Source of the DNA: Mobula hypostoma
Taxonomy: Eukaryota
Length of the DNA stretch: 64,000 nt
Reading direction: 5' to 3'
Assembly (NCBI RefSeq): GCF_963921235.1
Contig: NC_086097.1
Location: forward strand, 27,840,001 to 27,904,000
A model generated the notes under the pieces. The model ran no database searches. It worked only from the letters and a program-made list of their open reading frames with translations, and had not been told where the DNA came from. Of this stretch, positions 1 to 55,787 are shown in pieces. The position numbers were made by a program, and so were the translations under genes. Position 1 is the first letter of the stretch; the number at the start of each line of letters is the position of its first letter.

Positions 1-272
1 GTGGAATCATTAAAGAGGTATTTAGACAGGCAAAGAAGACCATTTACAGTGAGATGAGATTGGCATCATGGTCAGCACAGACAGGCTGGGCCAAAAGGCC
101 TGTTCCTGGGCTGTATTGTTCTATGTTCCTCACTTTACAAATGCTGCCTAGCCTGTTGAGTATTCCCAACATTCTCTGTCTTAAGAGAGGAACCTACCTC
201 TAAAAGCAGGTAGGGAGTAATGAAGAGGGAGGACAATGATGCAAATGGTCAGGAGGGGAAAACTGGTAACTA

Positions 273-3079: not shown

Positions 3080-4141
3080 ATAGTCATAATCATAGTCATA
3101 CTTTATTGATCCCAGGGGAAATTGGTTTTCGTTACAGTTGCACCATAAATAATTAAATAGTAATAAAACCATAAATAGTTAAATAGTAATATGTAAATTA
3201 TGCCAGGAAATAAGTCCAGGACCAGCCTATTGGCTCAGGGTGTCTGACCCTCCAAGGGAGGAGTTGTAAAGTTTGATGGCCACAGGCAGGAATGACTTCC
3301 TATGACGCTCTGTGTTGCATCTCGGTGGAATGAGTCTCTGACTGAATGTACTCCTGTGCCCACCCAGTACATTATGTAGTGGATGGGAGACATTGTCCAA
3401 GATGGCAAGCAACTTGGACAGCATCCTCTTTTCAGACACCACCGTGAGAGAGTCCAGTTCCATCCCCACAACATCACTGGCCTTATGAATGAGTTTGTTG
3501 ATCCTGTTGGTGTCTGCTACCCTCAGCCTGCTGCCCCAGCACACAACAGCAAACATGATAGCACTGGCCACCACAGACTCGTAGAACATCCTCAGCATCG
3601 TCCGGCAGATGTTAAAGGACCTCAGTCTCCTCAGGAAATAGAGACGGCTCTGACCCTTCTTGTAGACAGCCTCAGTGTTCTTTGACCAGTCCAGTTTATT
3701 GTCAATACGTATCCCCAGGTATTTGTAATCCTCCACCATGTCCACACTGACCCCCTGGATGGAAACAGGGGTCACCGGTACCATAGCTCTCCTCAGGTCT
3801 ACCACCAGCTCCTTAGTCTTTTTCACATTAAGCTGCAGATAATTCTGCTCACACCATGTGACAAAGTTTCCTACCGTGGCCCTGTACTCAGCCTCATCTC
3901 CCTTGCGGATGCATCCAACTATGGCAGAGTCATCAGAAAACTTCTGAAGATGACAAGACTCTGTGCAGTAGTTGAAGTCCGAGGTGTAAATGGTGAAGAG
4001 AAAGGGAGACAAGACAGTCCCCTGTGGAGCCCCGGTGCTGCTGATCACTCTGTTGGACACACAGTGTTGCAAGCACACGTACTGTGGTCTGCCAGTCAGG
4101 TAATCAAGAATCCATGATACCAGGAAAGCATCCACCTGCAT
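3080..4141 (-). mobile_element. Rex1/Babar-like LINE, 5'-truncated, open RT C-terminal frame
   Basis: GAPQGTVLSPFLF..KFSDDSAIVG..KYLGIRIDNKLDW; TATGAC-type tail; near-identical copy at 40086-40734. Confidence 0.85.
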
Positions 4142-8947: not shown

Positions 8948-9896
8948 AACATGAGAAATTCTGCAGATGCTGGAAATCCAAAGCAACACACACAAAATGC
9001 TGGAGGAACTCAGCAAGTCAGGTAGCATCGATGGAAACGAATCAACAGTCGCTGTTCGGGCCAACACATTTCATCAGTACTGGAAAGGAAGGGGAAAGAC
9101 TCAAGAATTAATTTAAAAGGTGGAAGGAGGGGAAGCAGGATAGCTAGAAGGTGACAGGTGAAGCCAGGTGGGTAGGAAAGGTAAAGGGCTAGAGAGGAAG
9201 GAATGCTATAGGAGAATAGAGTGGACCAGAGGCAAAGGGCGAGGAGGGAACCCTAGGGAAGGTAGGAAGCTAGAGTGGGGAATAGAAGAGAGGAGGAGAG
9301 AGGAATTTTTTTAAACCGAAAGGACAAATCGACATTCTTGCCATCATGTTGGAGGCTACCCAGGCAGAATAAGGTGTTGCTCCTCTATGGTGAGGGTGGC
9401 CTCATCCTGCGCAAGAGGAGGCCATGGACTGATATGTTGGAACAGGAATGGGAAATGGAATAAAAATGTTTCGCCACCAGAAAGTTCTGCTTGAGGCACT
9501 TGACAAAGTGGTCCTCCAATTTATGACGGGTCACCAATCTAGAGGAGCACCAGACACAATAGATGACCCCAGCAGATTTGCTGGTGAATTGTTGCCTCAT
9601 CGGGAAGGATTGTTTGGGGCGCTGAATGGAGGTGAGGGAGAAGGTGAACATGTGGGTGTAGCACTTTAGCTGCTTGCAGGAATAAGTGGTGGGAAAAAGT
9701 TCAATGGGGAGGGAAAATTGGACAAGGAAATCATGGAGGGCGTGATCCTCTGGTAAGTGGGGGGTGGGTTGGGGGGAAGAGAACTGTTCCTTTTCAGTCC
9801 TGAACAAATGCCTTGGCCCAAAACTTCGACTGTTTATTCATTTCCATAGATGCTGCCTGACCTGCTGAGTTTCTCCAGCATTTTGTGTGTGTTGCT
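8948..9896 (-). mobile_element. Penelope-like element fragment with inverted 5' end
   Basis: GIY-YIG remnant (AGVIYCVWCS, ORF 9385-9807); termini are inverted copies; TSD TTGAA(G/A)TAAAGACTA at 8933-8947 and 9897-9911. Confidence 0.8.
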
Positions 9897-11178
9897 TTGA
9901 AATAAAGACTATCCTGCCTGCAAAAATAGATGTGACTAGCAAAGAAGTATTTAAAATGAGAGCATAAATACATGATTTGCTTTCAAAGTCTAAACAGTGG
10001 CTTAGGTATTGGTATTGGTTTATCATTAATCAAAGATGGTGCCAAGCTACAACTTCCGTTGAGTCACAGCTCAGATTTATTGTACTTTAAATTGTTTTTT
10101 CTTAGGTTTGCAAGGGTTATTTTGGGGACAGGGAGAGGAGTTAGGTAACAAGTTAGGGATGTGGAGGAACTGGAGGTCGGTCCAGTGTCTAAGTCTCAGC
10201 TCCACATTTGAAGACCGGCGATGCAGACATGGGAAATCTGCGCTCGAATATCAGATGTTGGACTGGCAGATAGAGGATGGGCCCCACACCCACCCCAGGT
10301 CAGCAAGCTGTCAGCTTGTTCCAGAGCTGCAGTTTCTATGCAGGCAGGAGGAACAAGTTCTGATGACTCCCTGGGTTTGCAAATTGATGAGATCACAGTT
10401 CAAAGCCTACGGTATGGGGTCCCATCATCTGTGAGTCTGGAGCTCAACCTCTAGTGTTTGGTGATTGGTGTGTCATAAGATCACTGCAGAGGGCCATAAG
10501 ACATAAGAGTAGAATTAGGCCATTTGGCCCATCTAGTCTGCTCCGATGATCGAATTGGAAGTTGAGGCACATTGGCCATAGTCGAGTCTGCAAATCCCTT
10601 AGTTCACAAATTCCTGAGAGTCCGCTGGGGAGGTCGAAGCCCGGTGTCTGCAGGGCCCAAGTCAATGTCTGGTGGAGGCTGGAACCTTGGCCTGTTCTGC
10701 AGTTAAAGGACTATATATGTGTGTGGGTGGGGGAGGGGGAGAGAAGAGGATCAGGGCCTGTTTTTGCTGTTGCTGTATCGTTGTTTGTGTTCTGAGTTGT
10801 TCTACCAAGCACGTAGGTATGCTATGTTGGTGCCAGAAAGTGTGGCAACACTTGTAGTCTGCCCCCTAGTACACCCTTAGGTGTATTGATTATTAACGCA
10901 AACAACACATTTCACTGTACGTTTCAATGTACATGTCACAAATAAACTTCAGTCTTGAATCTTATTATTGTCATATGTACAAAAATACAGTGAAAGGCTA
11001 GTCTTGCATACTGTTTATGCAGTTCGAATCATTACATTAGAGCTAGAATAAGGTACAATAAAGTATAAAAACTACTGAAAGGGAGCAGTGTAGGTAAACA
11101 ATAACGTGTAAGATCGTAATGAGGTAAATTGAGGTAATAAAGTAGATTCTATTGTAAGAAGCAAATCTAATCAGATCT

Positions 11179-11358
11179 AGGAAGAGGTGCAGTCGACGTT
11201 TCAGGCCAAGACCCTTCGTCAGGACTAGTCCTGACAAAGGGTCTCGGCCTGAAACGTCGACTGCACCTCTTCCTAGAGATGCTGCCTGGCCTGCTGCGTT
11301 CACCAGCAACTTTTATGTGTGTTGCTTGAATTTCCAGCATCTGCAGAATCCCTGTTGT
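11179..11358 (+). mobile_element. Miniature Penelope-like insertion (palindromic double hammerhead)
   Basis: 13-bp TSD TCTAATCAGATCT at 11166-11178 and 11359-11371; 51-bp arms 11176-11226 / 11227-11277 with 2 mismatches. Confidence 0.85.
11191..11226 (-). ncRNA. Minimal type-I hammerhead ribozyme motif
   Basis: Minus strand reads AGUC-CUGACGA-A-GGGU-CUUG-GCCU-GAAA-C-GUC-GACU: stem I AGUC/GACU, catalytic core, short stem II, ACGU palindrome in place of stem III. Confidence 0.7.
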
Positions 11359-12279
11359 TCTAATCAGATCTGTTGAGTTCTTCGAGGTTTATTTTGAGTG
11401 GAAAATTTCTGATAGCAGAGCACTAACGAGCAAAAAAATAGGTTACCCAGAACCAAAGTGAACAGGATAATTTTTTATAAAACAGAAAATCTGCAGATGC
11501 TGGAAATCCAAGCAACACACACAAAATGCTGGAGGAACTCAGCAGGCCAGGCAGCATCTATGGAAAAGAGTACAGTCAACGTTTCAGGCCGAGACCTTTC
11601 ATCAAGACATCAGGATCATTTTACTCTTTTTTATCACAATGTGCCAATGCACCCTACCAACACTGTGAATTTAGGTCTCTGCTGGGAACTGACATTAACT
11701 GCTCCATTTTTGTTCATGGACCTCTCAGATCCCTCTCATCATCTCCTGCAGAGTCTAAGGTAACAAGCTCTTAAAACAAAATACAGAATAGATATCCGTT
11801 GAGTAATTGGTTTAGAGGACCAATGGCACTAAAATGAATCACTAATACAGGGCTGCATCAAGTACTTCGGTACACAAAAATAGCAAATCATGGAATTCAA
11901 TGCAAAGAGAGCGAGTTGATGTTTTTGCATAGACAATGATAGATTGGTGCAGACAAGACAGTAGATGCTTACTTGAGTGGTGCCTTGTGACTGCCTCATC
12001 TGCAGTTGAGGTAGAAAACATACACAAATGATACTAATACTACTTGTCTCATTTGCATTTGGACAGAACATTGTGACCTACTGAAGTACCACAAGACATA
12101 CTTAGAATCTGGTAATATAAATCTACTCAAGGTGATGATAACAAGGACTTTGCAAACTATTTGTATATAAACAATAACTTTTATTGTATTGAAGTACCTT
12201 ATAAATAGGAAAAGGTTATTAAAATGAGGCTTAAGAGAAAGTGGAAGGTGATAAGGTATTGTTGAAGGGACATATTTTG

Positions 12280-12850
12280 AGATGCACACACAAAATGCTG
12301 GAATTCAGCAAGCCAGGCAACATCAGTGGAGCAATATAAACAGTCAATGCGTACTGGAAAGGAAGGGTGAGACCAGGTGAGGGAAAAGGTTGGTGGTGGT
12401 GGAGGTTGATGTGATAAGCTGTGAGGAGATATGTGGGAAGAGGTAAAGGGCTATGAAAGAAATTTAATAGGAGAGAATCTCAACCCAAAGCATCAACTAC
12501 TTTTTTCCATAGATGCTGTCTAGCCTGCTGAATTCCTCCAGCATTTTGTATGTGTTGCTTGGATTTCCAGAGTCCCTGGATTCTGTAGATCTGTAGAGTT
12601 TGTAATAGGAGAGGATAGTGGACCATGGAAGAAATAGGAGGAGGAGGGGAACCAGAGGCAGGTGATGGCAGGTGAGCAGAAGGTCCTCACCTTCTTATTC
12701 TGGCTTCTGCCTTTTTATTTTCTATACTCTGATGAAAGCTCTTAGCCCAAAACATTGACTTTTTATTTCCCTCCACAATGCTGCCTGGCCTGCTAAGTTC
12801 TTCCAACATTATGTGTGTGCTGATCAGCATCTGTGGAATCCCTTGTACAT
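12280..12850. mobile_element. Degraded, nested Penelope-like terminal fragments
   Basis: CACACAAAATGCTGG and GATGCTGCCTGGCCTGCT motifs in both orientations; decayed CTGATGA core near 12729; a similar minus-strand end lies at 11480-11610. Confidence 0.65.
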
Positions 12851-14619: not shown

Positions 14620-16330
14620 TAGGTTGACCACTTCAAATCCGGAAATCAGTAATCCAGTTCCACCGCTGGTTCAGACATAACTTTTGCCAGCCTAACTTCA
14701 AATTTCCTGTGTCGCCGTGCCAAAGAAGCAAGTCATACTGTGTTTTTCTGCATTTATTTTTATAACGTGCTTATCTAACCCAAATCATGTCTTTATTGAA
14801 TAAAGAAAGTGCTTCTCATGGTGTAAAATGCAAACACCATATGTTAAAAATACAAGATAAGGTGGAAGTTTTGACAAAACTCGACAGTGGTGTGTCTGTG
14901 AAAAGCATATACAACTTGTATAACATTGGCTCTTCCACAGTTCATGAAACAAAGAAACAAAAAGATAAGTTGCTCCAGTTCTTTGCTAACAGCAAATCAG
15001 AAAAAAAAGATGTGCATATGGAAAAAAATGAAACATGAAAGATGTTCACAACTAGATTAAGTTCACATAAAGTGGTTTAAGCTCCGCGTCAGTGAAGGTG
15101 TAGAACTGTCAGGAGAGATGGTGAAGGAACAAGCAGTATTATTTCATGAAGAATTAGGACTGGATTATGAGTGTGATTACAGTGAAGGGTGGCTTTAGCA
15201 TTACAAGCAGCAACAGGGCATAAAATTTTGTACAGTGTGTGGTGAAAAACAGTCAGCAGACATGGAAGCAGCCGCCGAGTTTGTGATGAATTCGCTAAAT
15301 TAGTTTCTGATGAAGATTTAAATCTGGAGTAGTTCACAGGCTTTTTATTTGTCGTTTATTCTTGCTTTATTATCCAATTTGTACTATTTAATAATACAAT
15401 AACAAGGTAACCTACAGGGAAGAAGTCATCTCTCTGACACAGTGGTGTCAAGAAAACAATCTCTCCCTCAATGTCACAAAAACAAAGGAGCTGGTTGCGG
15501 ATTACAGGAGGGATGGAGACAGGCTAACCCAGATTAACATCAATGGATCTGGAGTTGAGAGGGTAAACAGCTTTAAATTCCTCGGCATCCACATCACCGA
15601 GGACCTCATGTGGTCTGTACACACCAGCTGTGTGGTGAAAAAGGCACAACAGTGCCTCTTTCACCTCAGATGGTTGAGGAAGTTTGGTATGGGTCCCCAA
15701 ATCCTAAGAACTTTCTACAGGGGCACAATTGAGAGCATCCTGACTAGAAGCAGCACTGCCTGGTACGGGAACTGTACCTCCCTTAACTGCAGGACTCTGC
15801 AGACAGTGGTATGGACAGCACAGCGCATCTATTGTTATGAACTTCCCATGATTCAGGACATTTACAAAGACAGGTGTGAAAAAAGGGCCCATAAGGATCA
15901 TTGGGGACCCGAGTCACCTCAGCCAGAAACTATTCCAGCTGCTACCATCTAGGAAACGGTACCACAGCATAAAAGCCAGGACCAACAGGCTCTGGGACAG
16001 CTTCTTCCACCAGGCCATCAGACTGATTAACTCATGCTGATTTGAGTGTATTTCCATGTTACATTGACTACTCCATTTATTATAAATTCTTATAAATTAC
16101 TATGATTGCACATTGCACATTTAGACGGAGACTTAACGTAAAGATTTTTACACCTCGTAAGAAATAAAGTCAATTTAATACAGGGTACTATAAAGGTTGG
16201 GTGAGGTGATCATCATGTGGATTAGAAGTGTTTGTTTATTTAATCCTAATTTAACCACCTGTGATTCGGCAAAATCACTATTCTGGCACTGCACAGATCC
16301 AGTGATTCTGGATTTGTGGTGGTCAACCTG
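14620..16330 (+). mobile_element. Internally deleted Tigger/pogo transposon with a nested Rex1-like LINE fragment (about 15408-16175)
   Basis: TIRs (T)AGGTTGACCAC / GTGGTCAACCTG with flanking TA; ORF 14787-15038 resembles a CENP-B/psq-type HTH (KVEVLTKLDSGVSVKSI..YNIGSSTV); ORF 15608-15952 is a Rex1-type RT tail. Confidence 0.8.
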
Positions 16331-16494
16331 TAACTGAATTATTGAAAATTAGAAGGGTTATTAATGGAAATGTTATTTTATTTAGTGATGCAGTGCAGTA
16401 ACAGGCCCATGGCCTAACAAGACCGCGCTGCACAACTCTCACCAAAGTTGCTGGTGAACGCAGCAGGCCAGGCAGCATCTCTAGGAAGAGGTAC

Positions 16495-16530
16495 AGTCGA
16501 CGTTTCAGGCCGAGACCCTTCATCAGGACT
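16495..16530 (-). ncRNA. Minimal type-I hammerhead ribozyme motif
   Basis: AGUC-CUGAUGA-A-GGGU-CUCG-GCCU-GAAA-C-GUC-GACU. Confidence 0.7.
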
Positions 16531-16759
16531 AACTGAAGGAAGAGCTAGTAAGAGATTTGAAAGTGGGAGGGGGAGGGGGAGATCCAAAATGATAGGAGAA
16601 GACAGGAGGGGGAGGGATGGAGCCAAGAGCTGGACAGGTGATTGGCAAAAGGGATATGAGAGGATCATGGGACAGGAGGCCCAGGGAGAAGGAAAAGGGG
16701 AGGGGGGGAAAAACCCAGAGGATGGCAAGGGGTATAGTCAGAGGGACAGAGGGAGAAAA

Positions 16760-16761
<2 letters not shown>

Positions 16762-16792
<31 letters not shown>
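16762..16792. repeat. (GA)n microsatellite within the Penelope-like arm
   Basis: Visible GA run, longer than in the partner arm. Confidence 0.9.
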
Positions 16793-16797
<5 letters not shown>

Positions 16798-17472
16798 ATG
16801 TGAGTATATAAATAAATAACGGATGGGGTACGAGGGGGAGGTGGGGCATTAGCGTAAGTTAGAGAAGTCGATGTTCATGCCATCAGGTTGGAGGCTACCC
16901 AGACGGAATATAGATGCTCCCGATGTGGCCTTCTATATATTGGTGAGACCCGACGCAGACTGGGAGATCGTTTTGCTGAACACCAACGCTCTGTCTGCCA
17001 GAGAAAGCAGGATCTCCCAGTGGCCACACATTTTAATTCCACATCCCATTCCCATTCTGATATGTCTATCCACGGCCTCCTCTACTGTAAAGATGAAGCC
17101 ACACCCAGGTTAGAAGGAACAACACCTTATATTCCGTCTGGGTAGCCTCTAACCTGATGGCATGAACACTGACTTCTGCTAATGCCCCACCTCCCCCTCA
17201 TACCCCATCCGTTAATTATTTATATACACACATTCTTTCTCTCTCTCTCCTTTTTCTCCCTCTGTCCCTCTGACTATACCCCTTGCTCATCCTCTGGGTT
17301 TCCCCCCTCCCCCTTCTCCTTCTCCCTGGGCCTCCTGTCCCATGATTCTCTCATATCCCTTTTGCCAATCACCTGACCAGTTCTTGGCTCCATCCCTCCC
17401 CTTCCGTCTTCTCCTATCATTTTGATTCTCCCCCTCCCCCTCTCAAATCTCTTACTAGCTCTTCCTTCAGTT

Positions 17473-17508
17473 AGTCCTGACGAAGGGTCTCGGCCCGAAA
17501 CATCGACT
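17473..17508 (+). ncRNA. Minimal type-I hammerhead ribozyme motif (G-to-A change in stem III)
   Basis: AGUC-CUGACGA-A-GGGU-CUCG-GCCC-GAAA-C-AUC-GACU. Confidence 0.6.
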
Positions 17509-19990
17509 GTACCTCTTCTTAGAGATGCTGCCTGGCCTGCTGCGTTCACCAGCAATTTTGATGTGTGTTGCTTGAATTTCCAGCATCTGCAGAATTCCTC
17601 GTGTTTACGCTGCACAATTCTACCCATTTGACCAATTAACTACCAACCTGGACGTCTTTGAAATTTGGGAGGAAACCAGAGCACCCAGAGGACACCTGTG
17701 CGGTCACAGAGAGAATATACAGGCTCCTTAAAGACAGTGGCTGAACTGAACTCTGGGCACTGATTCTGTAATATCATTCTGCTAACCACTACGCTACCAT
17801 CCTGCCCCAACTATGCTACCATGCCGCCCTATGTAGAGGTTATGTAGAAACTTGAAACAAAGAAGAAAATTCATGAAAGCAAATGTTTCTTTTGCTAATA
17901 CTGAATACTCGCCACCTTCCAGTCACATATTGAACCTGTCAAGGACTTATCTTTACAATGACTACACAGAGTTATGGTGTGGGATTGATGTGTATAATTG
18001 CAGATATTTACAGATCCCAGAGTTATTGTTTACCATATACCACAAAAACACTGGACAATTTTGGAGCATAGAAGAAACTATTTTTACTAGAATTTTTTTC
18101 TTAGTATCATAGAACTCCAAACAGACAGTTAAGATCACATTGAATAGCGTAGGTCAAGCAGTGTTGGAAGATACCAAGCTGCAATCCATCATGCCATACA
18201 ATAGAACATAGATCACTACAGTATAATACAACCCACAATGTTGTCCCAACCTTTTAACCTACTTTAAGATCAATCTAACTCATCCCTCCCACATAGCCAT
18301 CCATTTTTCTTTCATCCACTTGCCCATCTAGGAGTCTCCTAAATGTCCCTAACCAGTAACACTTAGTGGCTAATTACTAATCTAGTGGTTATAATACGGT
18401 GAGTGAGTTCCTGTAAATCACTCACTGTATTATAACCATTAGATTGAAAGAAAAAATAAAAAGGATAAAACCAGAAAATGTCCACTTCACAAACATTGAG
18501 CACTAGGTCTAAATTCTGAAATGTGCCCCACAGATTAGTCCAGTTAAAGCCTAACATAATGGTTCGTACAAAACCATACCATCCAAATATCAAGCGGACT
18601 CCACCTCAACAATCCCTAAAAATGTCCAGTCCACTCGGGAAGACAGACCCAGAGGTGGTGGTGCTACAGGTGTGTGGCAATATTCCTGGGAGCTTACAAC
18701 ACTGATGCCAGATGTTATGATGTTTTTGTGCATTAGATGAAGAAAGGACAAAAAAAACTCTGATTTCCACCCAAAGACACATGGATTAGGGTTAGTAAGT
18801 TGTGAGCATTCTATACTGGTGCTGTAAGCATAGTGACACTTAAGGGCTGCCTTCAGCACACTCTTGATGCAAAGGACCACACTTCACAGTATGTTTCAAT
18901 GCCTTGATATACATGTTATAAATAAAGCTAAGTTTTCTTTCTTTTCATTCCTGTTCATCCTTTCCTTATTTCCTTGAAACATTTGACCTAGCAATAAAGG
19001 AACAATGATATTGCTTTAAAATCAGGATGGTGTGCGGCAAGGAGGGGAACTGTAGGTACCATTGCTACTGTTGGGCGTTACTCCCTTCAGGTGGGATGTG
19101 CTTGGACCCACGTCATCATATCCAGGAGCAGTTGTTGCCCTGCAGCTATCAGGCTCCTGGACGGGCTTCATTCACCTCAGTGCTGAATGGGCTACGCAGT
19201 TGGGAACTCATTTTCAGCAATTCTACAAATCATGTTCCATGTGGTTTTGTTTACTATTTGATCAAGGCGTACAGGTCAAGGACGAAGGACGAACCAGTGT
19301 TATGCTCACGATTCCACAAGGTTTACTTGTTTCAGCACTGGCTATGGCCTGCAGTCATCGGGCTCCTGGACTGGCTTCCCTTACCTCAGTGCTGAACTGG
19401 CTCTGTGGCTGTGGACTGACTTTTGGAGACTCTGCGGTTCATGTTCTGTGTGTTTGTTTATTTTATATTGTTTGCACAAGTTGTTCTTTCCTTTCGCAGA
19501 TTGGGTGTTTGACTATCTTGGTTATGTGGGTTTATTTTGATGGGTTCTATTGTGTTTTTTGTTTTGTGGTTGGCTGCGAGACGAAGGATCTCAAGATTGT
19601 ATACAATATAGTACATGCTTTGATAATAAATACACTGCTAATTTTGAACTTTGTACTGTGCCTCCACAGCCCTACTTCTTGATTGTGATAAAGCTGCTGT
19701 CGGAATAAGTCAGCAACTGCAGTGCTTTTTGTACATATGTGTCATACACTATGGTTGTACCACTACATTGAGTTCAACGGCCACTGGGACATGCCTTCTT
19801 CTCATTGCTACCATCCAGGTGGTGGTACAGGAACTTGAAGACACACTCAACATTTTAGAAACAGCTTCTTCCCCTCTGTCATCAGATTTCTGAATGGACA
19901 ATGAACCCATGTACACTTCTTCAATATTTTTTTTCTTTGTTTTTTGCTCTTTATTTGCAATACTTCTTCCTTTTTTAAAAAAATATATAC

Positions 19991-22525: not shown

Positions 22526-22967
22526 TATTTCTTATTGTAATTTATAGTTTTTTTTTTATTATGTCTTGCAATGTACTGCCTCCACAAAGCAACAAATTTC
22601 ACGACCTATGCCAGTGACATTAAACCTGACTCTGATTCTGTTGCAGCTCTATCAAACTCTGGTTTGTCCATACATGGGAGTATTGTGTTCAGTTCTAGTC
22701 ACTGCTCTATAGGAAGGAAATGGAAGTTTTAGAAGCTATGGAAGAGATTTACCAAGATGCTGTCTGGATTAGAGAGTGTCTTTTATGAGGACAGTTTGAA
22801 TGAGCTAGGGCTTTTCTCCTTGGAGCTAGAGAGGATGAGGGGTGTCTTGATAGAGGTATACAAGGTGATAAAAGGCTAAGACAGACTGGACAGCCAGAGA
22901 CTTTTTTCCCAGAATAGAACTGGCTAATACGAGGGGGCAAAACTTTAGATACTTGGAGGAAAATATA

Positions 22968-24584
<1,617 letters not shown>

Positions 24585-25169
24585 TAGGTGGGATGTCAGA
24601 AGTAGGATTTTTAAAAACAGAAATTGGTGGACGTGTGGAACACACTGCAAGACTTGGAGGTACAGGCAGATACATTAGACATTTATGAGACTTAAATAAG
24701 CACGTGGAGAAAAGAAAAATGGAGTGCTAGATTGATCTTTGAGTAGGTTAAAGGATTGGGACTATATTGTGGGTTGAAGTGTCCAATTAGGACAACGAAC
24801 TTCAGGAACGATGCAAAGTTTTAGGAGAGAGGGTGCAGAGGAAGTTTTGCTTAGAACTAAGCAGATTCCTGATAAAAGTACTTAAAATCATAAAATGTCC
24901 AGAAGAGATGAAAGAATGAAACTATTCCCATATTTGACAGAAAGGCAAAGAATCAGAACCACAGAATGAGGATGACCATGGCAAAAGCAGAAAAAAATGA
25001 CATGAGAGGAAGATATTATTTTGGAAATGAGTACTAAGAATCTGGAATTCAACAGCAGCACTCAAAAGCAACTGTGCAAAAATTTGAAAAGAAAGAAATA
25101 GAATGACAAGGAGAGTGTAGGGGAGTAGAATTAGCTGGATTACTCCTGCACAGAGCATGTGCATGCTCA

Positions 25170-26406: not shown

Positions 26407-27319
26407 TATATCTTTCACTCAGTCAGCTTGATTATTGCTTTCCATGACAGAGATCAGAAAAGAATGTTTGCTTCAAGAGTCTGGTGTTAGATATGCAAGT
26501 GACATGGCCTGTCTGATGTGGCTAAGAGTAACCAGGGTCTCAATGCTGGGTATGTTAGCCTGGAAAGGATACTGACCATGATTTGATAATCTTTTCAGTA
26601 CATTTAGAGAATTCTGCAGACCCAATTGGTGGTATTTTTTCAGAGCAGTCACTTAGCCATTGCTAGTAGTACAAATCTCAAGCATTTAGTAGGGCAGGAG
26701 TCACAGCCGCTTGGTAAATCATGAGTTTTGTGACTAATTGAGGGTTTCTTCTTCCCCCTTCCTTTTCAGTCCTGATGAAAGTCTCGGCCCGAAAAGGCAA
26801 CAGTTTATTCCTCTCCATAGATGCTACCTGACCTGCTGAGTACCTCCAGCATTTTGTTTGTGTTGCTCTTGTTCTTCAAATATCACAGGTGAAGCCCTGC
26901 CCAAAACTGAGCACATCTACAAAAGCGCTGTCACAGGAAAGCAGCATTGAACATCAAGTGCCTGCACCATCCAGGCTATGCTTTTCCTCTCGCTGCTACC
27001 ATTGGGGAGGTGGTACAGAAAGCCTTAGGTCGCACACCCCCAGATTCAGGAATAGTTATTATCCTTCAACTATCAGGCCCCTGAACCAGTCGTTACTCAT
27101 CTCAACTCTAACCTCACTCCACAACCTATGGACTCACTTTCAAGGTGTCTACAGCTCATGTTCTCAATATTATTTATTTATTTATCTGGTTGCTTATTTA
27201 TTGATTTATTTACTTATTGGCATTTTAATTGTATTTGTAGTTTTGCTCTGATTCTATCATATTCTATTCTACTGTGAATGTCTGCAAGAAAATGGATCTC
27301 AGAGTAGTATATGGTGACA

Positions 27320-30918: not shown

Positions 30919-32600
30919 CTTTCTTTTTAAATCTTTTTATTGAGTAAGTATACAAAAAAGGTAAGCCATATAAACATTAATACAATGTTAAAGTACAATA
31001 AAATTCCAAAAGATAACAATACCAAAAAGAAAATACTACAAACAATGTAATTTAAGCATAAGAAACCAAGATAACATAATAGTATACTAGATTTTATATA
31101 TATCAATGGAAAAAAAAAAGAAAAAAGAAAAAAAAACCCCCCAAAAAAAAACCCACCGTGCAACTACCTAAAAGCAAAGCAAAGCAATGGGCTAACTTGA
31201 AACCAAACAGAGTTAAACTTAAAATCACGTCCTCAATCCCGACCTCCATTAAAACAGTGAAAAAAAAACAAGAAGGGTAAATATTACATTAAATGAAAAT
31301 ATCGAATAAAAGGTCCCCAAATCTGTTCAAATTTAAATGAAGAATCATAAAGGTTACTTCTAATTTTCTCCAGATTCAAACATAAAATCGTCTGAGAAAA
31401 CCAAAAAAAGGTAGTTGGAGAGCATTAAGCTCTTTCCAATGTTGTAAAATACATCTTTTCGCCATTAAAGTAAGAAATGCAATCATTCTACGGGCTGAAG
31501 GGGAAAGATTACTAGAAATTTTAGGTAGTCCAAAGATAGCAGTAATAGGGTGAGGAGAGATATCTATATTTAATACCTTAGAAATAATATTGAAAATATC
31601 TCTCCAAAAAGTTTCCAAAGTAGGGCAAGACCAAAACATATGAGTTAAAGAGGCTATCTGCCCCGAACATCTATCACAGAAAGGATTAATATGCGAGTAA
31701 AAACGCGCTAACTTATCTTTGGACATATGTGCTCTATGAACCACTTTAAATTGAATTAGGGAATGTTTAGCACAAATAGAGGAAGTATTAACTAATTGTA
31801 AAATCTGCCCCCAATCATCCACAGAAATGGTAAGCCCCAATTCCTGTTCCCAATCTACCCTAATCTTATCAAATGGAGCTTTCCTAAGTTTCATAATAAT
31901 ATTATAAATCATAGCCGATGCACCTTTCTGACATGGATTAAGGTTAATTATCGAATCTAAAATATATATAGGAGGAAGCATTGGAAAGGAAGAAAGTATA
32001 GTACTTAGGAAATTTCTAACTTGTAAATATCTAAAAAAATGTATTCTTGATAAGTTATATTTATTAGATAATTGTTCAAAAGACATAAGGGAACCATCTA
32101 AAAATAAATCCAAAAACCGTAAAATACCCTTAGTCTTCCAAGTTTGAAAAGCGCGATCCGTAAAAGAGGGAGGAAAAAATATGTTACCTAAAATAGGAAT
32201 CGCTAACCCGAATTGATTAAGATCAAAAAATTTTCTGAATTGAAACCAAATGCGCAAAGCATATTTAACTATCGGGTTAGAGACCTGCTTAAGGCGTTTC
32301 GAATCAAAAGGAAGAGAGGAACCTAAAATAGAACCAAGTGTATAACCCTGAACAGATTGTAATTCCAATGCTACCCATTTAGGAATAGATAGTATGTCCC
32401 GGTCAAGTAACCAAAATTTCATATGTCGAATATTAATAGCCCAATAATAAAATCTAAAGTTAGGTAATGCTAAACCTCCATCTCTCTTAGCTTTCTGTAA
32501 ATGTATTTTACCCAGTCTCGGATTCTTATTCTGCCAAATAAATGAAGAAATTTTAGAGTCAACTTTATCAAAAAAAGATTTAGGAACGAAAATTGGTAAT
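30919..32600 (-). mobile_element. L1/Tx1-like LINE, 5'-truncated, about 400-codon open ORF2 C-terminal region
   Basis: GGLALPNFRFYYWA and CDRCSGQIASLTHMFWSC; AATAAA with A-rich tail; 9-bp TSD GAGCACCTT at 30910-30918 and 32601-32609. Confidence 0.9.
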
Positions 32601-32839
32601 GAGCACCTTACAACTCCCTTGGTAGAGATGAAATTCCACCCCACCACCCTATGCTTCGATGTGCATGTGACAAATAAAGCTAATCTTGCTTTTGGATCTG
32701 GGACATGCTCCTCTTCTCGTTTTGACCACTGAGAAGGAAGTAGAGGAACTTAAGGACTCACACTGAACAATGTAGAAAAAAGCTTATTTCCTTCTGCCAT
32801 CAAATTTCTGAATGGCTCATGAATATTATATCTTTTCTC

Positions 32840-36150: not shown

Positions 36151-38929
36151 CTGCCAAAGCCAAATACAAAGCCGAGGGGTTACTAAGAATGGGCAATAGC
36201 AGCTCATTTTAACAGTTCTGTTTTATATACAGTAACATCCCACACACAGAAATAAAATGAGATAGATTTCCATGTGTTAATTAACAAATGCAATTCTAAA
36301 CACCTGGGAAAAAAAGTTAAACAAAATGCTCTACCTAGAATACATTAGAAAACAATCATTTAAATTTTAACAAAACTACAATACACAATTGGTAACTTAT
36401 TTTCTTGCTATTTCTCTCCCCTTCCCAGCCATGCTCACCCTTTCTCCAGACACCAAGATTAATAAACTGTATTGACAACACTGTTAACCAGTGGATCCTC
36501 TGGTGATTCTCACCCACAAAGCTTGTGCCAGGAAAGTAACAGACAGCAGGAATTATTGTGGCTAAACACTATTCTATCATTACCACTACAAGAAGGTACA
36601 CGCATTGAGATTAGGTGAGGAGTGACGATTGCTAGCTCATTTTTCTCTTGATAGAATGATTTATTAACCTGCTCAAGTCCAAAATCTGCTGTGTAGTATC
36701 AAATTCAGTCAATTTATAAGCAAGTAAATATTTATTTCAATTTAAACTGCTATTAAATTAATTGTCAGTGGCTAATAAGAAAATTATTTATTTCATGAAA
36801 CCAGATACCCAAGACCCTGAACCGTGCTGTAAGTGGCAGGGATACACCTTTATTAAATGGGGTGGCACAGTACTGTAGTGGTTAGGAGAGGGTAAACAGT
36901 GGATCCTCTGGCTGATCCTTATCCACAAAGCTTGTGTCAGGAGAATAGTACCTAGAGAGAATTATCATGGCTGAGCTGTATTCTAAAGATAAAGAGATTA
37001 ACTTTATTTGTCACATGTGCATCAAAACATTAAGTGAAATGAGCTGTTTGCTTTGAGAATGTGCTGGGGGCAACACACAAGTGTTGCTATGCTTCTGGTG
37101 CCAACATATCATAACAGCAATTTACTAATCCTTGGAATATGGTCATGGAAGGAATATATAAACTCCTTACAGGCAGTAGCGGGAATTGAACTCCAATCGT
37201 ACAGTTGGTGCTGTGGAGTGGTACACTAACAGCTACACTACCATGCTACCCATTACCACCACAGCAAGAGGGTGAGTAAGAAGTGAGGATTGAGGAGTAC
37301 TACCTCATTTTTCTGTTGATCGTATGAGCTGCTTACCTGCTCAAATTCAACGTCTGCTCTCTAATCCAAAGGGTTTAGTACAATGATGGGTGAACATATC
37401 AGAAGGGATATAGTAGCACTGGAGGCAGTCCAAAGGAGATTCGCCAGGCTAATCCTGAGATAAGAGGATTGTCTTATCAAGAGAGGCTAAATTGCTTGGA
37501 TATGTATTGTCTGCAGTTTATAAGAATGGTGGGTCTTATTGTAACATACTAAAGGGGGCTTGTCAGGGTAAATGTTAAGATGATTTCACTAGTGGGAGAA
37601 TCTCAAATCAGGGGACTCGTTTTAAAATAAAGGGCCAGTATTTAAAATAAGGTGTGTAGAAATCTCTGATCAAAGAGGGCAGTGAGTTTTTGGAATGAGG
37701 TACCTTTGTAAGAAGAATTAATACTTCACAGCTCCAGTGGCTAGGATCCAATCCTGAACCTCAGTGCTGTCTGTGTGGAGTCTGCATGATTTCTCTGTGG
37801 CTGCCTCCCACATCCCAAATTTGTGTGGGTTGAAAGATTAATACGAGAAGGCATTATTTTAAAAGATGATCGGAGGGAAGTATGGGGGGGGGGAATGTCA
37901 GAGGTAGGTTTTCGTTTATACACAGAAGAGTGCTGGGTGCATGGAACGTCTTTTGCCAGGGGTGGTAGTAGAGGCAGATACATAAGAAACTATTAGATAG
38001 GCACATTGATGGAAGGGAAATGGAAGGCTATGTGTGAGGAAAGGGTTAGATTCAGCTTACAATAGGTTAGAAAGTCAGCACAACAATGTGGGCCACAGGG
38101 CCTGTACTGAGCTGTACTATTACATGAACTATGTTAATTGTCTACTGTAAATTGCCTTGAGTGTGTACGTGAACAATAGAATCTGGGCAGAAGTCCAGAG
38201 AGGATATGCTCCACAGAAAATTAATGGAGGGATGGGATGGCTCTTTGCGGTGCTTCATAGACTTGATCAGCCAAAATGGGCTCTCAGAGGGTTTCAACCC
38301 AAAATGGCAACTATCCATTTCCCTTCCAGATGCTGCTTGACCAGCTGAGTTCCTCCAGCAGTTTGTTTGTTGACGTCTTTCTGAGTCATCAGGAAATATG
38401 TAACTATATATGAATTGTTGCCTGATGTCTCAGGAAGATAACATTCATCATTAAGTTTTTCACACAGAGAGTGATGGGTGTGTGGAATGCACTGCTGGTG
38501 GCGGCAGTGGAAGCAGATACAATAGGGTCTTTTAAGAGCCTCATAGTTGGGTACATGGAGCTTAGAAAAATAGAGGGCTAAGTGCTAGTGAAATTCTAAG
38601 CAGTTTCTAGAGTAGGTTATATGGTTGGCACAACACTGTGGGCCGAAAGGCCTGTAACGTGCCGCAGATTTCCATGTTCTTTGTACTATTAAGGTCCCTG
38701 AGCATCCAGGATATGCCTTCTTCTCAATACTGCCATCAGGCAGAAGGTATACGAGTCTGAATAACCACACTTCAAGGTTCAACAGCAGCTTATTCCCCAC
38801 AGTCATCAGGTTCTTGAAACGACCTGAAAAGCCCTAATTCTACCTGAGCTTGCTTCAACTTATTTCCCTCAACTTGCACTAAAGTTGTCTACTTTTTTTG
38901 CCCAAGTTATGCATAATAGAAGAGCAGAT

Positions 38930-39796: not shown

Positions 39797-42700
39797 GGGC
39801 AGGTGAGGTCTGGGCCTGACGTCCTGCTCACCCAGGGAAAGTGAACGTACAATACATCGCCTCTCCTTTCCCGGTGTAGTGATCGCCGCGTGGTCACTGT
39901 CTGGCCTGCTAGGCAGGAGGCCACTGCAACTGGCCTCTCCTACATTACTGCATCCGAGCGTTCAGCGGTATAACTGGATGGGTAGGCTGGGTTCGTTAGC
40001 CTTGGTTGGCAGCCAGCCTAAGAGAAGGACAACTCTGAATCCAAACTCGGGCAGGTGGGGCTCGTTAACCTTGTCAGGCCATCCAGTAGTAGTAGTAGTC
40101 ATACTTTATTAATCCCGAGGGAAATTGGTTTTCGGTACAGTTGCTCCATAAATAATAAATAGTAATAGAACCATAAATAGTTAAATAGTAATATGTAAAT
40201 TATGCCAGGAAATTATGAAATAAGTCCAGGACCAGCCTATTGGCTCAGAGTGTCTGACCCTCCAAGGGAGGAGTTGTAAAGTTTGATGGCCATAGGCAGG
40301 AATGACTTCCTATGACGCTCTGTGTTGCATCTCGGTGGGATGAGTCTCTGGCTGAATGTACTCCTGTGCCCACCCAGTACATTATGTAGTGGATGGGAGA
40401 CATTGACCAAGATGGCATGCAACTTAGACAGCATCCTCTTTTCAGACACCACCGTCAGAGAGTCCAGTTCCATCCCCACAACATCACTGGCCTTACGAAT
40501 GAGTTTGTTGATTCTGTTGGTGTCTGCCACCCTCAGCCTGCTGCCCAGCACACAACAGCAAACATGATAGCACTGGCCACCACAGACTCGTAGAACATCC
40601 TCAGCATCATCTGGCAGATGTTAAAGGACCTCAGTCTCCTCAGAAAATAGAGACGGCTCTGACCCTTCTTGTAGACAGCCTCAGTGTTCTTAGACCAGTC
40701 CAGTTTATTGTCAATTCGTATCCCCAAGTATTTGAAGGACATTCCAACGTAAATCCTACAACCTGAGGACCTCGCTGTCACCATCCCAGCTTGCCAGGCT
40801 ATGGCAGATGAACCCCAGGTGTAAAGGGTGGGGCCAGAACCGCACAAACTGCACTCCACCTAAAATACCATTGCACAGGCCGAAGGACATACTCACGTCT
40901 ACGACCATCCTCCCCAACCATTCATCAAGCCTTGCAGCGATGGGAAAGGGGCGAAAACGGCAGGAGGAAGATGACACTGGAAGCCGCAGTTGCGATCCTG
41001 CATACAGGCAGTTCAGGTGTATGGGTCATCTGATGTTGACCCCAGAGACAACAATATCATTCGGCAGCACCCTGAGCGACCAAGCAGCCTTCTCTAGGGA
41101 CAGCACTGCTTGCTCCACACGGAGAGGGGCCTAGAAAAGGTGGCCTAACCAAAGCTCGTTTCCATTTCCCCCAGTTGGCTAGCGCGGTCAATGGACATCC
41201 TCAAATGCGGTCGAACAACAACAAAAAAGAAAAGGTACACACCTGCCTCACAAGGAGTGCAAGGACTAAAGCTTGCATGCTGGAACATCAGGACCATGCT
41301 CGATACAGCAGACAGTGGTCGTCCAGGACGATGCTCCGCTCTAGTTGCGCATGAACTTTCAAGACTGAATGTCGACATCACTGCTCTCAGTGAAGTCTGC
41401 TTCCCAGAGGAAGGCAACCTTCAAGAACATGGCGCCGGCTACACCTCTACTGGTTGGGCAAGCCAGAGACTGAGAGACGCCTTTCTGGCATTGGCTTTAT
41501 GGTCAGGTACTCCATTGCCTCCAAACTTGAAAAATTGCCAACGGGTCACTCCGACTGCATCATCTCCATGCGCCTCCCACTTTGAACCAAGCAGCATGCC
41601 ACACTCTTCAAGCAGATCCTGCAGAAAAGGACAAGTTTTACACTGATCTGCGCAACCTCGTACGGAACGCCCCTGCAGATGACAAGGTCTTCAACCTTGG
41701 CGACTTCAATGCCAGAGTAGGCCAAGATTCAGAAGCCTGGAAAGGAGTACTTGGCAAACGTGGTGCTGGAAACTGCAACAACAACAGGCCCCTTCTGTTA
41801 AGAGTTTTGCGCAGAGCAGCAACTCACCATCACCAACAACATTTTCCAGCAGAAAGACAGTCTGAAGACAACCTGGATGCATCTTCAGTCCAAGCATTGG
41901 CACCTCATAGACTACATCTTGGTGCGCCAGAGAGACCTTTGGGATGTCTTACTCACCCGAGTGACGCCCAGCGCAGAGTGTCATATGGACCATCGTCTTG
42001 TCTGCTGCAAACTCAGTCTCCATTTCAAGCCCAAGCCAAAAAGTGGAGGTGCTCCAAGGAAGAAGCTTCAGGTTGGCAACCTCCAGTCAGCTGAAGTGAA
42101 AGCTGACTTTCAGACGAATCTTCAGTCAAGGCTTCAGGATCCCTGCTTCCCCACAGACACCTCTCCAGAAGTGCTTTGGGAATACCTAAAAACCACCATT
42201 CTCAAAATCTCTGAAGTCATCCTAGGGTTTTCCACAAAGAAGAACAAGGACTGGTTCAATGAAAACAACCAGGAGATCCAAGAATTGCTGGCGAAGAAGA
42301 GATCCGCCCACCAGGCGCACCTTGCTCAGCCGTCTTGTCCTAATAAGAAAGCAGCCTTCCGCCTTGTATGCAGCAACCTCCAGAGCATGTTTTGAGAGAT
42401 TCAGAACGTGTGGTGGACCAACCTCGCAAAGAGAACTCAGCTTTGCACAGACACTGGTGACTACAGAGGTTTTTATAAAGCCCTGAGAGCGGTGTACAGC
42501 CCTTGCACCAGGTCCAGAGTCCCTTGCACAGTGCAGACGGTCAGGCACTCTTCACAGACAAGGCGTCCATCCTGAACCGGTGGTCGGAACATTTCCAGAC
42601 TCTCTTCAGCGCCAACCGCATGGTCCAAGACTCAGCAATTCATTGCATCCCACAACAGCCAGAAAAAACAGAACTGGACAAGATTCCAACCCTAGAAGAG

Positions 42701-44290
42701 ACAGTCAAGGCCACAGAGCAGCTGAAAAGCAGCAAGGCAGCGGGAGTTAATGGAATCCTACCTGAGATTTGGAAGCATGGGGGCCCAGCATTACACACCA
42801 AACTCCATGAGTTCTTTGTCTGCAGCTGGGAACGAAGTAAACTACCACAGGACCTCCGTGATGCAGTCATCATTGCCCTGTATAAGAACAAGGGAGAAAA
42901 GTCCGACTGCTCCAACTACCAGTTGATAACTCTGCTATCGCAGGAAAAATCCTCGCAGGAGTACTCTGAACAGATCGGTGCCCATCATTGCAGAAGAACA
43001 ACACCTCCCAGAGAGCCAGTGTGGCTTCAGAGCCAACAGGAGCACCACCAACATGGTATTTGTTCTCAGGCAGTTCCACGAGAAATGCAGGGAACAGAAC
43101 AAGGGATTGTATGTGACGTTCGTTGACCTTACCAAAGCGTTCGACACTGTGAGCAGGGAAGGCCTGTGGCGAATCATGGAACGACTGGGATGCCCTCCAA
43201 AGTTCCTCAGCATGGTCATCCAGCTACATGAAGATCAGCGTGGCCAAACCAGACACAACGACGACCTCTCGGAACCCTTCCCAATAGGCGACGGGATAAA
43301 GCAAGGCTGCGTCCTCGCGCTGACTCTCTTCACCATCTTCTTCAGCATGATGCTTGAAAAGGGCCACAGAAGACCTTGATGACGAGGACGGTGTTTACAT
43401 CCAATACCGCACCGATGGCAGTCTGTTCAACCTGAGGCGATTATAGTCCCACACCAAGACATTGGAGCAACTCATCCGAGAGCTACTCGTCACAGACAAT
43501 GCTGCCCTTGTTGCCCACACAGAGACAGCCCTGCAGCGTATAACATCCTGCTTCGCAGAGGCTGCCGAGCTCTTTGGATCGGTAGTCAGCTTGAAGAAGA
43601 CAGAAGTTCTCCATCAGCCCGTGCCTCAGGAAAATTACCACCCTCCCTGCATCACCATCGGTGAGGTAGAGTTGAAGACAGTCCACCAGTTCAGCTACCT
43701 GGGGTGCACCATCTCATCAGATGCCAAGATTGACAACAGACTGGCAAAGGCAAACAGCGCATTCAGCAGGCTGTACAAGAGAGTCTGGAACAACAAGCAT
43801 TTGAAGAAAGGCACAAAGATCAGCGCGTACAGAGCCGTTGTACTGACCACCCTCCTGTATGGCTCCGAGTCGTGGGTCACCTACCGTCACCACCTACGAC
43901 TCCTTGAGCGTTTCCACCAGCGCTGCCTCCGCACCATCCTCAACATCCACTTGAGTGACTTCGTCACCAACATCGAAGTCCTCAAACAGGCGGAGGTCAC
44001 CAGCATCGAGGCCATGCTGTTGAAGATGCAGCTGCGCTGGGCAGGGCACATCTCTAGGATAGAGGATCATCGCCTGCTGTATGGCAAACTCTCCACTGGC
44101 CACCATGACAGAGGGGCACCGAAGAAGAGGTACCAGGACTCTCTGAAGAAATCCCTTGGTGCCTGACACACTGACCATCGTCAGTGGTCTAATCTAGCCT
44201 CCGATCGCGAGGCCTGGTGACACACCATTCATCAGTCTGTCTCCTCCTTCGAGAACGCACGCAGGGCTGGCATTGAGGACAAAAGGAGAC
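39797..44290 (+). mobile_element. Near full-length RTE (BovB-like clade) LINE, frameshifted
   Basis: APE domain (LACWNIRTM..ALSEV; GDFNARVG; WHLIDYILVR..DHRLV) followed by RT (ESQCGFR, FVDLTKAFDTV, GIKQGCVLA, YGSESW, LRWAGHISR) spread over several frames; long 5' UTR. Confidence 0.88.
40086..40734 (-). mobile_element. Rex1/Babar-like 3' fragment inserted in the RTE 5' UTR
   Basis: Nearly identical to 3090-3725. Confidence 0.88.
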
Positions 44291-46425: not shown

Positions 46426-46429
46426 TTTA

Positions 46430-48589: not shown

Positions 48590-48796
48590 CAACAGTATTA
48601 TGACAAGAAATTCTGCAGATACTGGAAGTCCAGAGTAACAAACACAAACAGCTGCAGGTGCTCACCATATCAGACAGTATCTATGGAGAGGAATAAACAG
48701 TCAGTCCTGATAAGAGGTCTCAGCCTGAAATGCTGACTGTTTATTCTCCTCCATATATACTGCTTGACCTGTGGAGTTCCTCCAGCACTTGGTGTG
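48590..48796. mobile_element. Short inverted Penelope-like insertion with decayed hammerhead
   Basis: TSD TGATCATTCAA at 48579-48589 and 48797-48807; AGTC-CTGATAAG..GAAATGCTGACT. Confidence 0.7.
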
Positions 48797-49489
48797 TGAT
48801 CATTCAAACAGCTTGTATACTATCCTTCAAAATCATAATGAATTGGGTAAAAATATCTGGGAGAATTACCAATTCTGGGCTTAGAGAGATAAATTCAAAA
48901 ATGCTTTGATGAATTTGACAAATAATTCTAAGCCATTTAAGGTATGTCAGAAACCATCAAATGTAACAGGTAAAAATTTGTATTTGGAGCAATAGCAGAT
49001 GACTGTCAAAATTAGAACTAATTCAATAACAAGGTAAAACAGAAAGAAACTGGCTTCTGGGGCTTTTTACTCAGGAATGGAATGGATGATCTGGGAGAAA
49101 TGCAACATTCTTGTATAAGGGATCTAAATCATTATTCTGGAGCAAATTAAGAAAGCACAAAAGGGAGCACTCAAAGTTTAAGACCATCAGGAAATGCCTC
49201 TTTACTAAAAGTAGTTACATAACCCAACCTTGTCTACCTCTTCCCTTCACCTTTTCATATGAGCTATTTCCCCTCTTTTTTTCTGATCCAGATGAAAGGC
49301 ATTAACCTGAAATGATGTCTGTCCATTTGCTCCTATGAATGCTGCCTGACCTGCTGAGCTCCTCCAGCAATCATGTGCTGGCTTTGAATAGTATTCTACA
49401 TAAAATAGTGGAGGAAAAACCCAGAACCAATTAAAAATCACCGAATGGAGAGCCTATACAGAAGATTCAAAGATTAAGTAGTTCAACTG

Positions 49490-55775: not shown

Positions 55776-55787
55776 CTTCCCCCCTTT
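55776..55787 (-). promoter_or_regulatory. Polypurine tract
   Basis: AAAGGGGGGAAG directly abutting the 3' LTR. Confidence 0.9.

Follow-up and report, generated by a model that had tools for sequence, protein, structure and literature searches.

Penelope-like elements (PLEs) have been known since 2014 to carry minimal type-I hammerhead ribozymes, with motif counts of about 4,000 in the coelacanth and about 9,000 in Xenopus given in the accessible part of the original survey (PMC4209133). The same part of that survey reports low activity for PLE hammerhead dimers and trimers and good cleavage by the fungal PLE hammerheads, and a later review grades the activity as "very low, even as dimers" (PMC6765202). 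In the anole, according to the sections of the study available to us, the PLE hammerhead cleaves only with protein, this cleavage is rescued by a C3/G8 double change and is dispensable for insertion in vitro, and no RNA-seq ends were found at the cut (PMC11167929). Among nine dimers of vertebrate retrozymes, one, from Xenopus, is described in the available text as cleaved, and it was cleaved very well (10.64898/2026.07.22.740005). PLE insertions are characterized, in the parts of the sources consulted, by an inverted truncated partner, a 30–40 bp tail at one end, duplications, and junction palindromes (PMC8557442, PMC3846280), and a zinc finger in the linker is presented as the mark of the Neptune and Nematis elements (PMC8557442).

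We analyzed a 64-kb stretch of DNA from the ray Mobula hypostoma (64,000 nucleotides; hereafter, the window), in which the sequence-only reading had reported a hammerhead motif of this kind. A scan of the window with the 36-nt pattern recovered the sites that it had named, with no mismatch at 16495-16530(-) and 1 mismatch each at 11191-11226(-), 11227-11262(+), and 17473-17508(+), against a chance expectation of 0.00 matches in 100 shuffles. The first of these is an intact minimal type-I hammerhead, comprising a stem I of 4 bp, core box 1, the extra A, a stem II of 4 bp with a 4-nt loop, GAAA, the ACGU palindrome, and the GUC triplet, with the cut predicted between 16499 and 16498. A stricter descriptor, which combines the core boxes, stems I and II, a paired 15.2-16.2, and the lack of a loop III, is passed by 2 sites in the window, 16495-16530(-) and 11191-11226(-), and by none in 100 Markov-simulated windows. 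In the copy at 17473-17508(+), the 15.2-16.2 pair is broken by a change at 17502, and in that at 11227-11262(+), G8 is replaced by A; both intact copies have G10.1-U11.1 instead of G-C. Among 16 aligned copies, the CUGANGA and GAAA boxes and the UH triplet are intact in 3 as well as in the column consensus, the extra base after A9 is A in 14, and the 10.1-11.1 pair is most commonly G-C (5 copies), followed by G-U and A-U (3 each). The palindromic 15.2-16.2 without loop III reads ACGU in the intact copies and in the consensus. The identification as a PLE minimal type-I hammerhead, with an extra A after A9, an ACGU palindrome, and a GUC triplet, fits the published consensus, and we consider it likely that the motif lies in the pseudo-LTR (pLTR) of a hugely amplified, endonuclease-bearing PLE of myliobatiform rays.

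Stems I and II were present in the minimum-energy fold of all 4 monomers, none of which exceeded its shuffles in stability (z from -0.82 to +0.23). The covariance-model check that had been suggested for the motif did not bear it out: no Rfam hammerhead family matched up to E = 10, either in the whole window or in 16440-16600, perhaps because the stem III loop is missing. Rfam microRNA matches at 11177-11567 and 48672-48765 were rejected, being far under the gathering scores and reflecting inverted repeats.

A search of the window with the motif and its downstream tail (nhmmer) yielded 19 copies, the query included, 17 of them with E < 1e-3, whereas the best match in the reversed window had E = 3.8. 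All 8 decayed sites listed in the sequence-only reading were among the 19, and the PLE family covers about 4.5 kb, or 7% of the window, by the interval list. Ten of the copies are paired (see below). The dispersed ones include decayed motif/tail copies at 12474-12579(+), which starts within stem II, 12729-12848(+), and 49285-49379(+); decayed motif/short-tail copies at 26750-26867(+), of a second subfamily, and, strongly decayed, at 38281-38372(+); and a decayed copy at 61083-61850(-), which retains an endonuclease remnant (61850-61437), a motif near 61143-61182, and a short tail. Two matches are weak, namely 12281-12380(-) (E 0.048), where upstream sequence of the second subfamily is joined to the tail, and 108-171(+) (E 0.036), which consists of the tail only. 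At 12281-12380(-), most of the motif between both stem I strands is deleted, with the upstream sequence and the tail kept. Self-comparison of the window revealed no tandem arrays of the motif/tail unit, and a same-strand motif pair is absent from every insertion in it; the layout of non-LTR retrozymes, with at least 2 consecutive head-to-tail units and a complete motif, was thus not found among these copies, which are dispersed or head-to-head. Pattern scans of viral contigs, metagenomes, and prokaryote genomes returned 0 loci.

Remnants of a GIY-YIG endonuclease were located at 16912-17176(+), 16852-16911, 9813-9289, and 61850-61437, in the same sense as the motif, which lies about 300–400 nt 3' of them. 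The proposal that the motif marks the end of GIY-YIG-bearing repeats holds in this respect, but only 4 of the 19 copies reach an endonuclease remnant. In the protein comparison, which gave 9 matches among 19 candidate proteins, the remnant at 16912-17176(+) was 96% identical to a predicted Mobula hypostoma protein (P0002) and 90% identical to a predicted one of Hypanus sabinus; its match to the Pfam GIY-YIG profile was weak (E = 0.047) and below the cut-off. The longer forms of these ray proteins combine a YIDD-type motif, which lies upstream and which we take to be that of the reverse transcriptase (RT), with a CX3-4CxxC linker and a CCHH GIY-YIG domain. A CX2-5CxxC finger between the RT and the endonuclease is present in P0002-P0005 and P0010, and a decayed form of it occurs at 9813-9289. 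On the strength of these motifs rather than of a tree, the family probably belongs to the Neptune clade. The window contains no RT remnant, full-length element, or direct-tandem pLTR, and the layout of the master element is for that reason a reconstruction; comparison of a PLE protein profile with solved structures gave no match. A further endonuclease remnant of the same family, at 62793-62974(+), has no motif that we could find downstream; it faces away from the copy at 61083-61850(-), with which it may form an interrupted inverted pair.

The window also holds unrelated mobile elements. A very young LTR retroelement at 54938-59784 has two 838-bp LTRs that are 99.9% identical, an apparent 4-bp duplication at its ends, and a minus-strand open reading frame of 982 aa with SCAN and zinc-knuckle domains; Pfam revealed no RT or integrase in it, so it may be a non-autonomous derivative, and older related pieces lie at 45684-46574. 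A self-matching stretch of 1.6 kb (22966-24586), with DDE_3 transposase sequences at 23119-23646 on the minus and 23876-24364 on the plus strand, appears to be a Tc1-like element folded back on itself. The segments 3093-3725 and 40096-40734, which come from a LINE-like element, are 95% identical, and other RT, endonuclease, and zf-RVT remnants occur at 15395-15952, 31376-32749, 42930-43379, and 45101-45532. A near-perfect 67-bp hairpin at 18379-18445, matched far below the cut-off by plant microRNA models, is unrelated to the PLE.

The 10 paired copies form 5 head-to-head insertions (P1–P5), all flanked by target-site duplications of 11–15 bp, a score of 11 being reached by 0 of 5000 random pairs; no duplication was found for 8 of the 9 single copies. 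In P1 (8948-9896; 15-bp duplication with 1 mismatch), the minus arm carries the decayed linker zinc finger and endonuclease (9813-9289), a motif near 9047-9082, and a long tail, and the plus arm, from about 9787, carries the motif at 9796-9831 and a short tail. P2 (11179-11358) is a mini-insertion between 13-bp duplications (11166-11178 and 11359-11371), in which the intact motif at 11191-11226(-) stands head-to-head with the G8-changed motif at 11227-11262(+), both arms beginning at the motif's first base. P3 is the inverted insertion that contains the intact copy at 16495-16530(-). Its left arm (16440-16913, minus) contains the last ~20 codons of the endonuclease, the 3' UTR, the motif, and a short tail ending at +59 to +66 nt, and its right arm (16914-17607, plus) contains the GIY-YIG remnant at 16912-17176, frameshifted near 17115, the 3' UTR, the motif at 17473-17508, and a long tail to +103; the duplication of 14 bp, with 1 mismatch, occupies 16426-16439 and 17608-17621. 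The mini-insertion P4 (48590-48796; 11-bp duplication) joins a minus arm whose start (+1 to +3, 48702) coincides with the predicted cut to a plus arm that starts at the motif's first base (48703). In P5 (60395-60622; 15-bp duplication), two decayed motifs meet head-to-head at 60527/60528, with a long and a short tail. Among the single copies, that at 11475-11610(-), a motif with a long tail starting from the motif's first base, has a probable 12-bp duplication with 1 mismatch, for which the null of a wide search is 3%. In 4 of the 5 pairs, one arm ends about 59–69 nt and the other 100–113 nt past the predicted cut, the two tail lengths of the family being about +60–69 and +100–103 nt, and in public contigs the long element end falls at 17606/17607 against varied AT-rich flanks. 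The combination of 5' truncation, an inverted partner, an optional tail of 30–40 bp, and a duplication is the known PLE layout.

We compared the positions of the 5' starts in the 11 arms whose ends are fixed by a junction or a duplication, with coordinates read by eye; the 8 other copies have no definable ends. Relative to the cut, the starts lie at -736, -41, -32, -32, -415, -591, +1, -32, -30, -32, and -33, where the motif itself starts at -32. Six of the 11 arms, in 4 of the 6 insertions and in both subfamilies, begin at the motif's first base (-33 to -30), a clustering with P of 0.009–0.0002 under a uniform null over 100–400 nt corrected for window choice, which is a crude null applied to a small sample. 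The cut site is intact in 10 of the 11 arms, the remaining one, at 48702, starting at the cut, to within a microhomology of 2 nt. In the contigs, joints fell at 17466-17477 in 5 of 15 and 5 of 12 among the joints listed, some of which subfamily divergence could explain, and at the cut itself (17504|17505) in 4 among 15 listed of 45 and in 0 among 12 listed of 47. The uniform-null P of 1e-5 to 1e-4 for joints at the cut is not to be trusted, as 3 of the 4 are flagged "between: not known" and the reference has a private change at 17502; one of them may be the window's own 48702 junction. Together, arm 48702 and these joints offer hints that cut RNA is sometimes copied. Read most simply, the starts at the motif edge would reflect either an RNA that begins there or a point where the RT stops strongly, and they may record where the template RNA has its 5' end. 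An internal promoter is present in Drosophila Penelope. For the copy ending at 16530, the predicted probability of stems I and II is ~0.9 with 5 nt or less of upstream sequence and <0.07 with 10 nt or more, although such sequestration is not clearly special, being equaled by 7% of 300 shuffled upstream stretches. An RNA that starts at the motif would omit the 10–20 nt of upstream sequence with this predicted effect, so that only the motif of the 5' pLTR could fold. We tentatively raise the possibility that the template RNA has left a fossil record in the 5' ends of the insertions, in which the main cDNA class, ending at the motif's first base, would mark the start of the master RNA, and a minor class, ending at the GUC cut, would record cleavage in the germ line. 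If this were true, the 10^5–10^6 copies in ray genomes would allow in vivo cutting by PLE hammerheads to be tested from genomic data alone.

Variation among contigs aligned to the motif is dominated by CpG decay. Among the rows listed (40 of 54), 10 of the 11 variable sites in the motif belong to its five CpG dinucleotides, the eleventh, seen in one organism, is the base with which stem I ends, and the catalytic bases show no non-CpG change in four runs from three organisms. Non-CpG subfamily differences are many in the 36-nt flanks (12–14 of 70), compared with 1 of 26 inside the motif. The core had been expected to be more conserved than its surroundings, and an excess was indeed seen (P 0.044 in the first count), but it is marginal (P 0.04–0.08 overall, and 0.06–0.08 once the sites produced by a reference-copy deletion are dropped), and in the tail, the parts 17523-17542 and 17578-17606 likewise have no variable site listed. 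Support for selection is accordingly fair, not strong. The second anticipated signature, covariation of stems I and II, failed to appear, the 16 window copies being no better paired than shuffles (354 of 500 shuffles were as well paired); these copies are neutral relics of two close subfamilies, and the fourth stem II pair shows a one-sided U-G/U-A change. Non-CpG divergence in the window amounts to 18/142 in the core, 18/104 and 21/111 in the stems, and 124/808 in the tail (one CpG left out), so that the core decays as fast as the stems and the tail, consistent with neutral relics.

The pair next to the core varies among lineages. G10.1-C11.1 is the majority state in runs X1, X13, and X19, and C11.1 is changed to U (window 17496) at 46% of depth in X1 and 59.5% in X9, both from organism A, and organisms E and F have it at 18–20%; in organism A, the remaining C>T and G>A changes listed at CpGs reach 7–16% of depth. 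The 46% in organism A points to the spread of a subfamily with a G-U pair beside the core, and there appears to be a subfamily, specific to a lineage, in which stem II is closed by a G-U (or shifted A-U) pair. Loose contig ends pile up at 17473 in 4 of 4 runs and at 17510 in 3 of 4, that is, at both edges of the motif, suggesting a divergent subfamily that has the motif block with other immediate flanks. For X9, which is only guessed to be RNA and whose contigs cannot rank parts of the element, CpG decay at G8 is 1.5% against 7.3% in X1; with the same reservation, the X9/X1 depth ratio rises from ~0.035 upstream to ~0.14 in the tail.

Contig counts indicate that the family is very large. To a 270-nt stretch, 91,986 contigs of one DNA run align, with 33,764 and 2,291 contigs in runs of two other organisms, and the summed contig depth is ~1.1e7 at the motif and ~370 past 17616, none of these values being a copy number. 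Batoid genomes measure 2.2–4.0 Gb, as far as the source consulted covers them; scaled to this size, the 17 copies per 64 kb would correspond to ~0.3–1.7 million relics, if the intronic window is typical, and the 2 intact copies to 8,000–450,000 genome-wide (95% Poisson limits), again if the window is typical. The large reservoir of ribozyme motifs envisaged by the sequence-only reading is supported as to copy number, yet it is mostly decayed: in the window, 3 of 16 aligned copies keep every core base and 2 of 19 pass the full descriptor.

Nine exons of the host gene RPS6KA5 (MSK1) map to 282-51013(-), 89–100% identical to the Mobula protein. The copies between mapped exons are all intronic; those at 60.4–61.9 kb and 108-171 are not enclosed by them. 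Both intact motifs lie in introns of RPS6KA5 and have the orientation of its transcript, each transcribed after its antisense partner, and in the predicted pre-mRNA duplex with the partner arm 34/36 and 36/36 motif bases are paired. Duplexed in this way, the intact motifs should be inert, and the head-to-head arrangement of paired copies leads to mutual masking, not dimerization; with most of the motifs decayed and the intact ones predicted to be masked, the window copies are probably not able to cut. As a separate observation, in isoform X1 of the RPS6KA5 protein predicted for Mobula hypostoma (P0013), residues 1–24 resemble the translated PLE tail at 11557-11483 (64% over 25 aa, E 0.022) and are unlike the skate N-terminus; the Mobula residues would stem either from an error of annotation or from a PLE tail, located outside the window, that has become an exon.

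Dimer cleavage is reportedly the subject of a paper by Lunse et al., as its title has it. The assertion that such motifs cleave efficiently as dimers nevertheless goes beyond the accessible published results (PMC4209133, PMC6765202, PMC11167929, 10.64898/2026.07.22.740005), and we regard a slow, assisted hammerhead as the likely state of affairs. The element's protein would nick both target strands and start reverse transcription inside the RNA at two tail sites, as the anole work suggests in the sections available (PMC11167929). From these two sites, every cDNA longer than ~100 nt would include the motif, as a passenger, and two cDNAs joined by their ends would give a head-to-head insertion. 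The copied RNA would usually be uncut, given that the majority of arms extend across the position of the cut. The ribozyme would act, if at all, in the pLTR RNA of the master element, slowly and with the help of a second motif, through ACGU, or of the element's protein, and would serve to trim tandem or read-through transcripts. The first base of the motif would be the end point of many short cDNAs, the most likely reason being that the template RNA starts at this base or that the RT stops at it. After insertion, the copies would undergo neutral decay, mainly at CpGs, those in RPS6KA5 pre-mRNA being masked by the antisense partner. The original mechanism, in which efficient ACGU-paired cleavage yields unit-length, perhaps circular, RNA as the main template and the copies form an active reservoir, could draw on the retained palindrome and core, on the one arm that starts at the cut, on the 4 among 15 listed joints (of 45) that touch 17504|17505, and on the Xenopus retrozyme dimer. 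We find it quite unlikely, given that in 10 of the 11 mapped arms the sequence continues across the cut, that published rates are low and 8 of 9 retrozyme dimers were uncleaved in the accessible data (PMC4209133, PMC6765202, 10.64898/2026.07.22.740005), that no same-strand tandem pair occurs here and the intact copies are predicted to be masked, and that the descriptor accepts no more than 2 of the 19 copies.

A slow, assisted ribozyme must also be weighed against a motif kept for a non-catalytic job, as an internal promoter or initiator, a protein-binding site, or an RT stop, with cleavage vestigial in the family. That 6 of the 11 arms begin at the 5' edge of the motif instead of the cut would suit this, as would the subfamily that has spread in organism A with the weaker G-U next to the core (C11.1 changed to U at 46%), the in vitro insertion of the anole PLE without cleavage (PMC11167929), the proliferation of Naiad PLEs without canonical hammerheads, and the promoter inside Drosophila Penelope; still, the catalytic bases lack non-CpG changes in four runs from three organisms (among the rows listed, 40 of 54), the anole motif cleaves with protein and is rescued by the C3/G8 double change (PMC11167929), and fungal PLE versions cleave well (PMC4209133), all of which makes a non-catalytic role unlikely. 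The shared 5' edge would be explained without special RT behavior if the short copies belonged to a non-autonomous family of their own, similar to SINEs or retrozymes, with a master that begins at the motif's first base; 4 of the 6 mapped insertions have an arm that starts between -33 and -30, and PLE-derived non-autonomous retrozymes are described, one chondrichthyan included (10.64898/2026.07.22.740005). The edge, though, recurs across tail subfamilies (P2 versus P4, P5, and the copy ending at 11610), each with its own junction and duplication, and self-comparison of the window shows no tandem arrays, leaving a separate family very unlikely. Finally, both intact motifs are intronic and on the sense strand of the gene, and domesticated intronic hammerheads exist in amniotes, according to the part of the literature covered, so the two could in principle be ribozymes adopted by the host to act on RPS6KA5 pre-mRNA. 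We give this hardly any credence: in the transcript, each motif comes after its antisense partner, with which it is predicted to be fully duplexed, neither has a stem III loop or a same-strand partner, and the intact copies belong to the least diverged subfamily, with arms 87–93% alike, whose youth accounts for their intactness.

Among described systems, the minimal hammerheads of metazoan PLEs are, in the accessible part of the survey (PMC4209133), the nearest match in the motif itself. They share with the ray copies the core boxes, the unpaired base between A9 and 10.1, the lack of loop III, the palindromic 15.2-16.2, the short stem I, the site 3' of the endonuclease, and a prevalence of single truncated copies, with opposite-strand pairs 100–700 bp apart. 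Their consensus has G10.1-C11.1, which is also the commonest state among the aligned ray copies, although both intact ones have G-U; the 4-bp stem II resembles coral and anemone examples and differs from the 7 bp of teleosts; and the density here appears far above that of the coelacanth and Xenopus, by extrapolation from a single window (PMC4209133). No cartilaginous fish is among the Table S1 and Fig. S3 rows that we could consult in that source, and among the papers listed by a literature search none had a chondrichthyan PLE hammerhead beyond the mention of one chondrichthyan retrozyme. By comparison with these sources, the kind of ribozyme is known and the host lineage appears to be new; Repbase, Dfam, or preprint supplements may already contain the family. 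The vertebrate non-LTR retrozymes (Li et al. 2026, 10.64898/2026.07.22.740005) are, in the portion available, likewise PLE-derived, with a type-I hammerhead and one chondrichthyan genome among them, but are built of tandem units, arranged head-to-tail, each with its own motif, whereas the ray copies are dispersed or head-to-head.

The Poseidon element PAc of Anolis carolinensis (Frangieh et al. 2024, PMC11167929) has in common with the ray family, as far as the available sections show, the hammerhead in the pLTR, AT-rich targets, and extension of both target strands; its two internal RT start sites give an optional tail, and the corresponding sites here are ~35–40 nt apart. PAc belongs to the Penelope/Poseidon clade and its ORF starts inside the motif, and the ray family has the linker zinc finger. 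With the endonuclease-bearing Neptune PLEs (Craig et al. 2021, PMC8557442; Arkhipova et al. 2013, PMC3846280), in the parts consulted, it shares the C-terminal CCHH GIY-YIG domain and, in its relatives, the CX2-5CxxC linker, as well as 5' truncation, an inverted copy at the 5' end, a tail at one end, duplications, and junction palindromes. The duplications measure 11–15 bp here and 8–10 bp in Adineta PLEs, and the linker finger also occurs in Nematis (PMC8557442), so the Neptune assignment is a probable one. Many of the ray insertions are dated and flanked by duplications, and they allow a cheap count of cDNA ends relative to the motif. The locus extends PLE hammerheads to batoid Neptune-type elements, at a density that may be among the highest reported.
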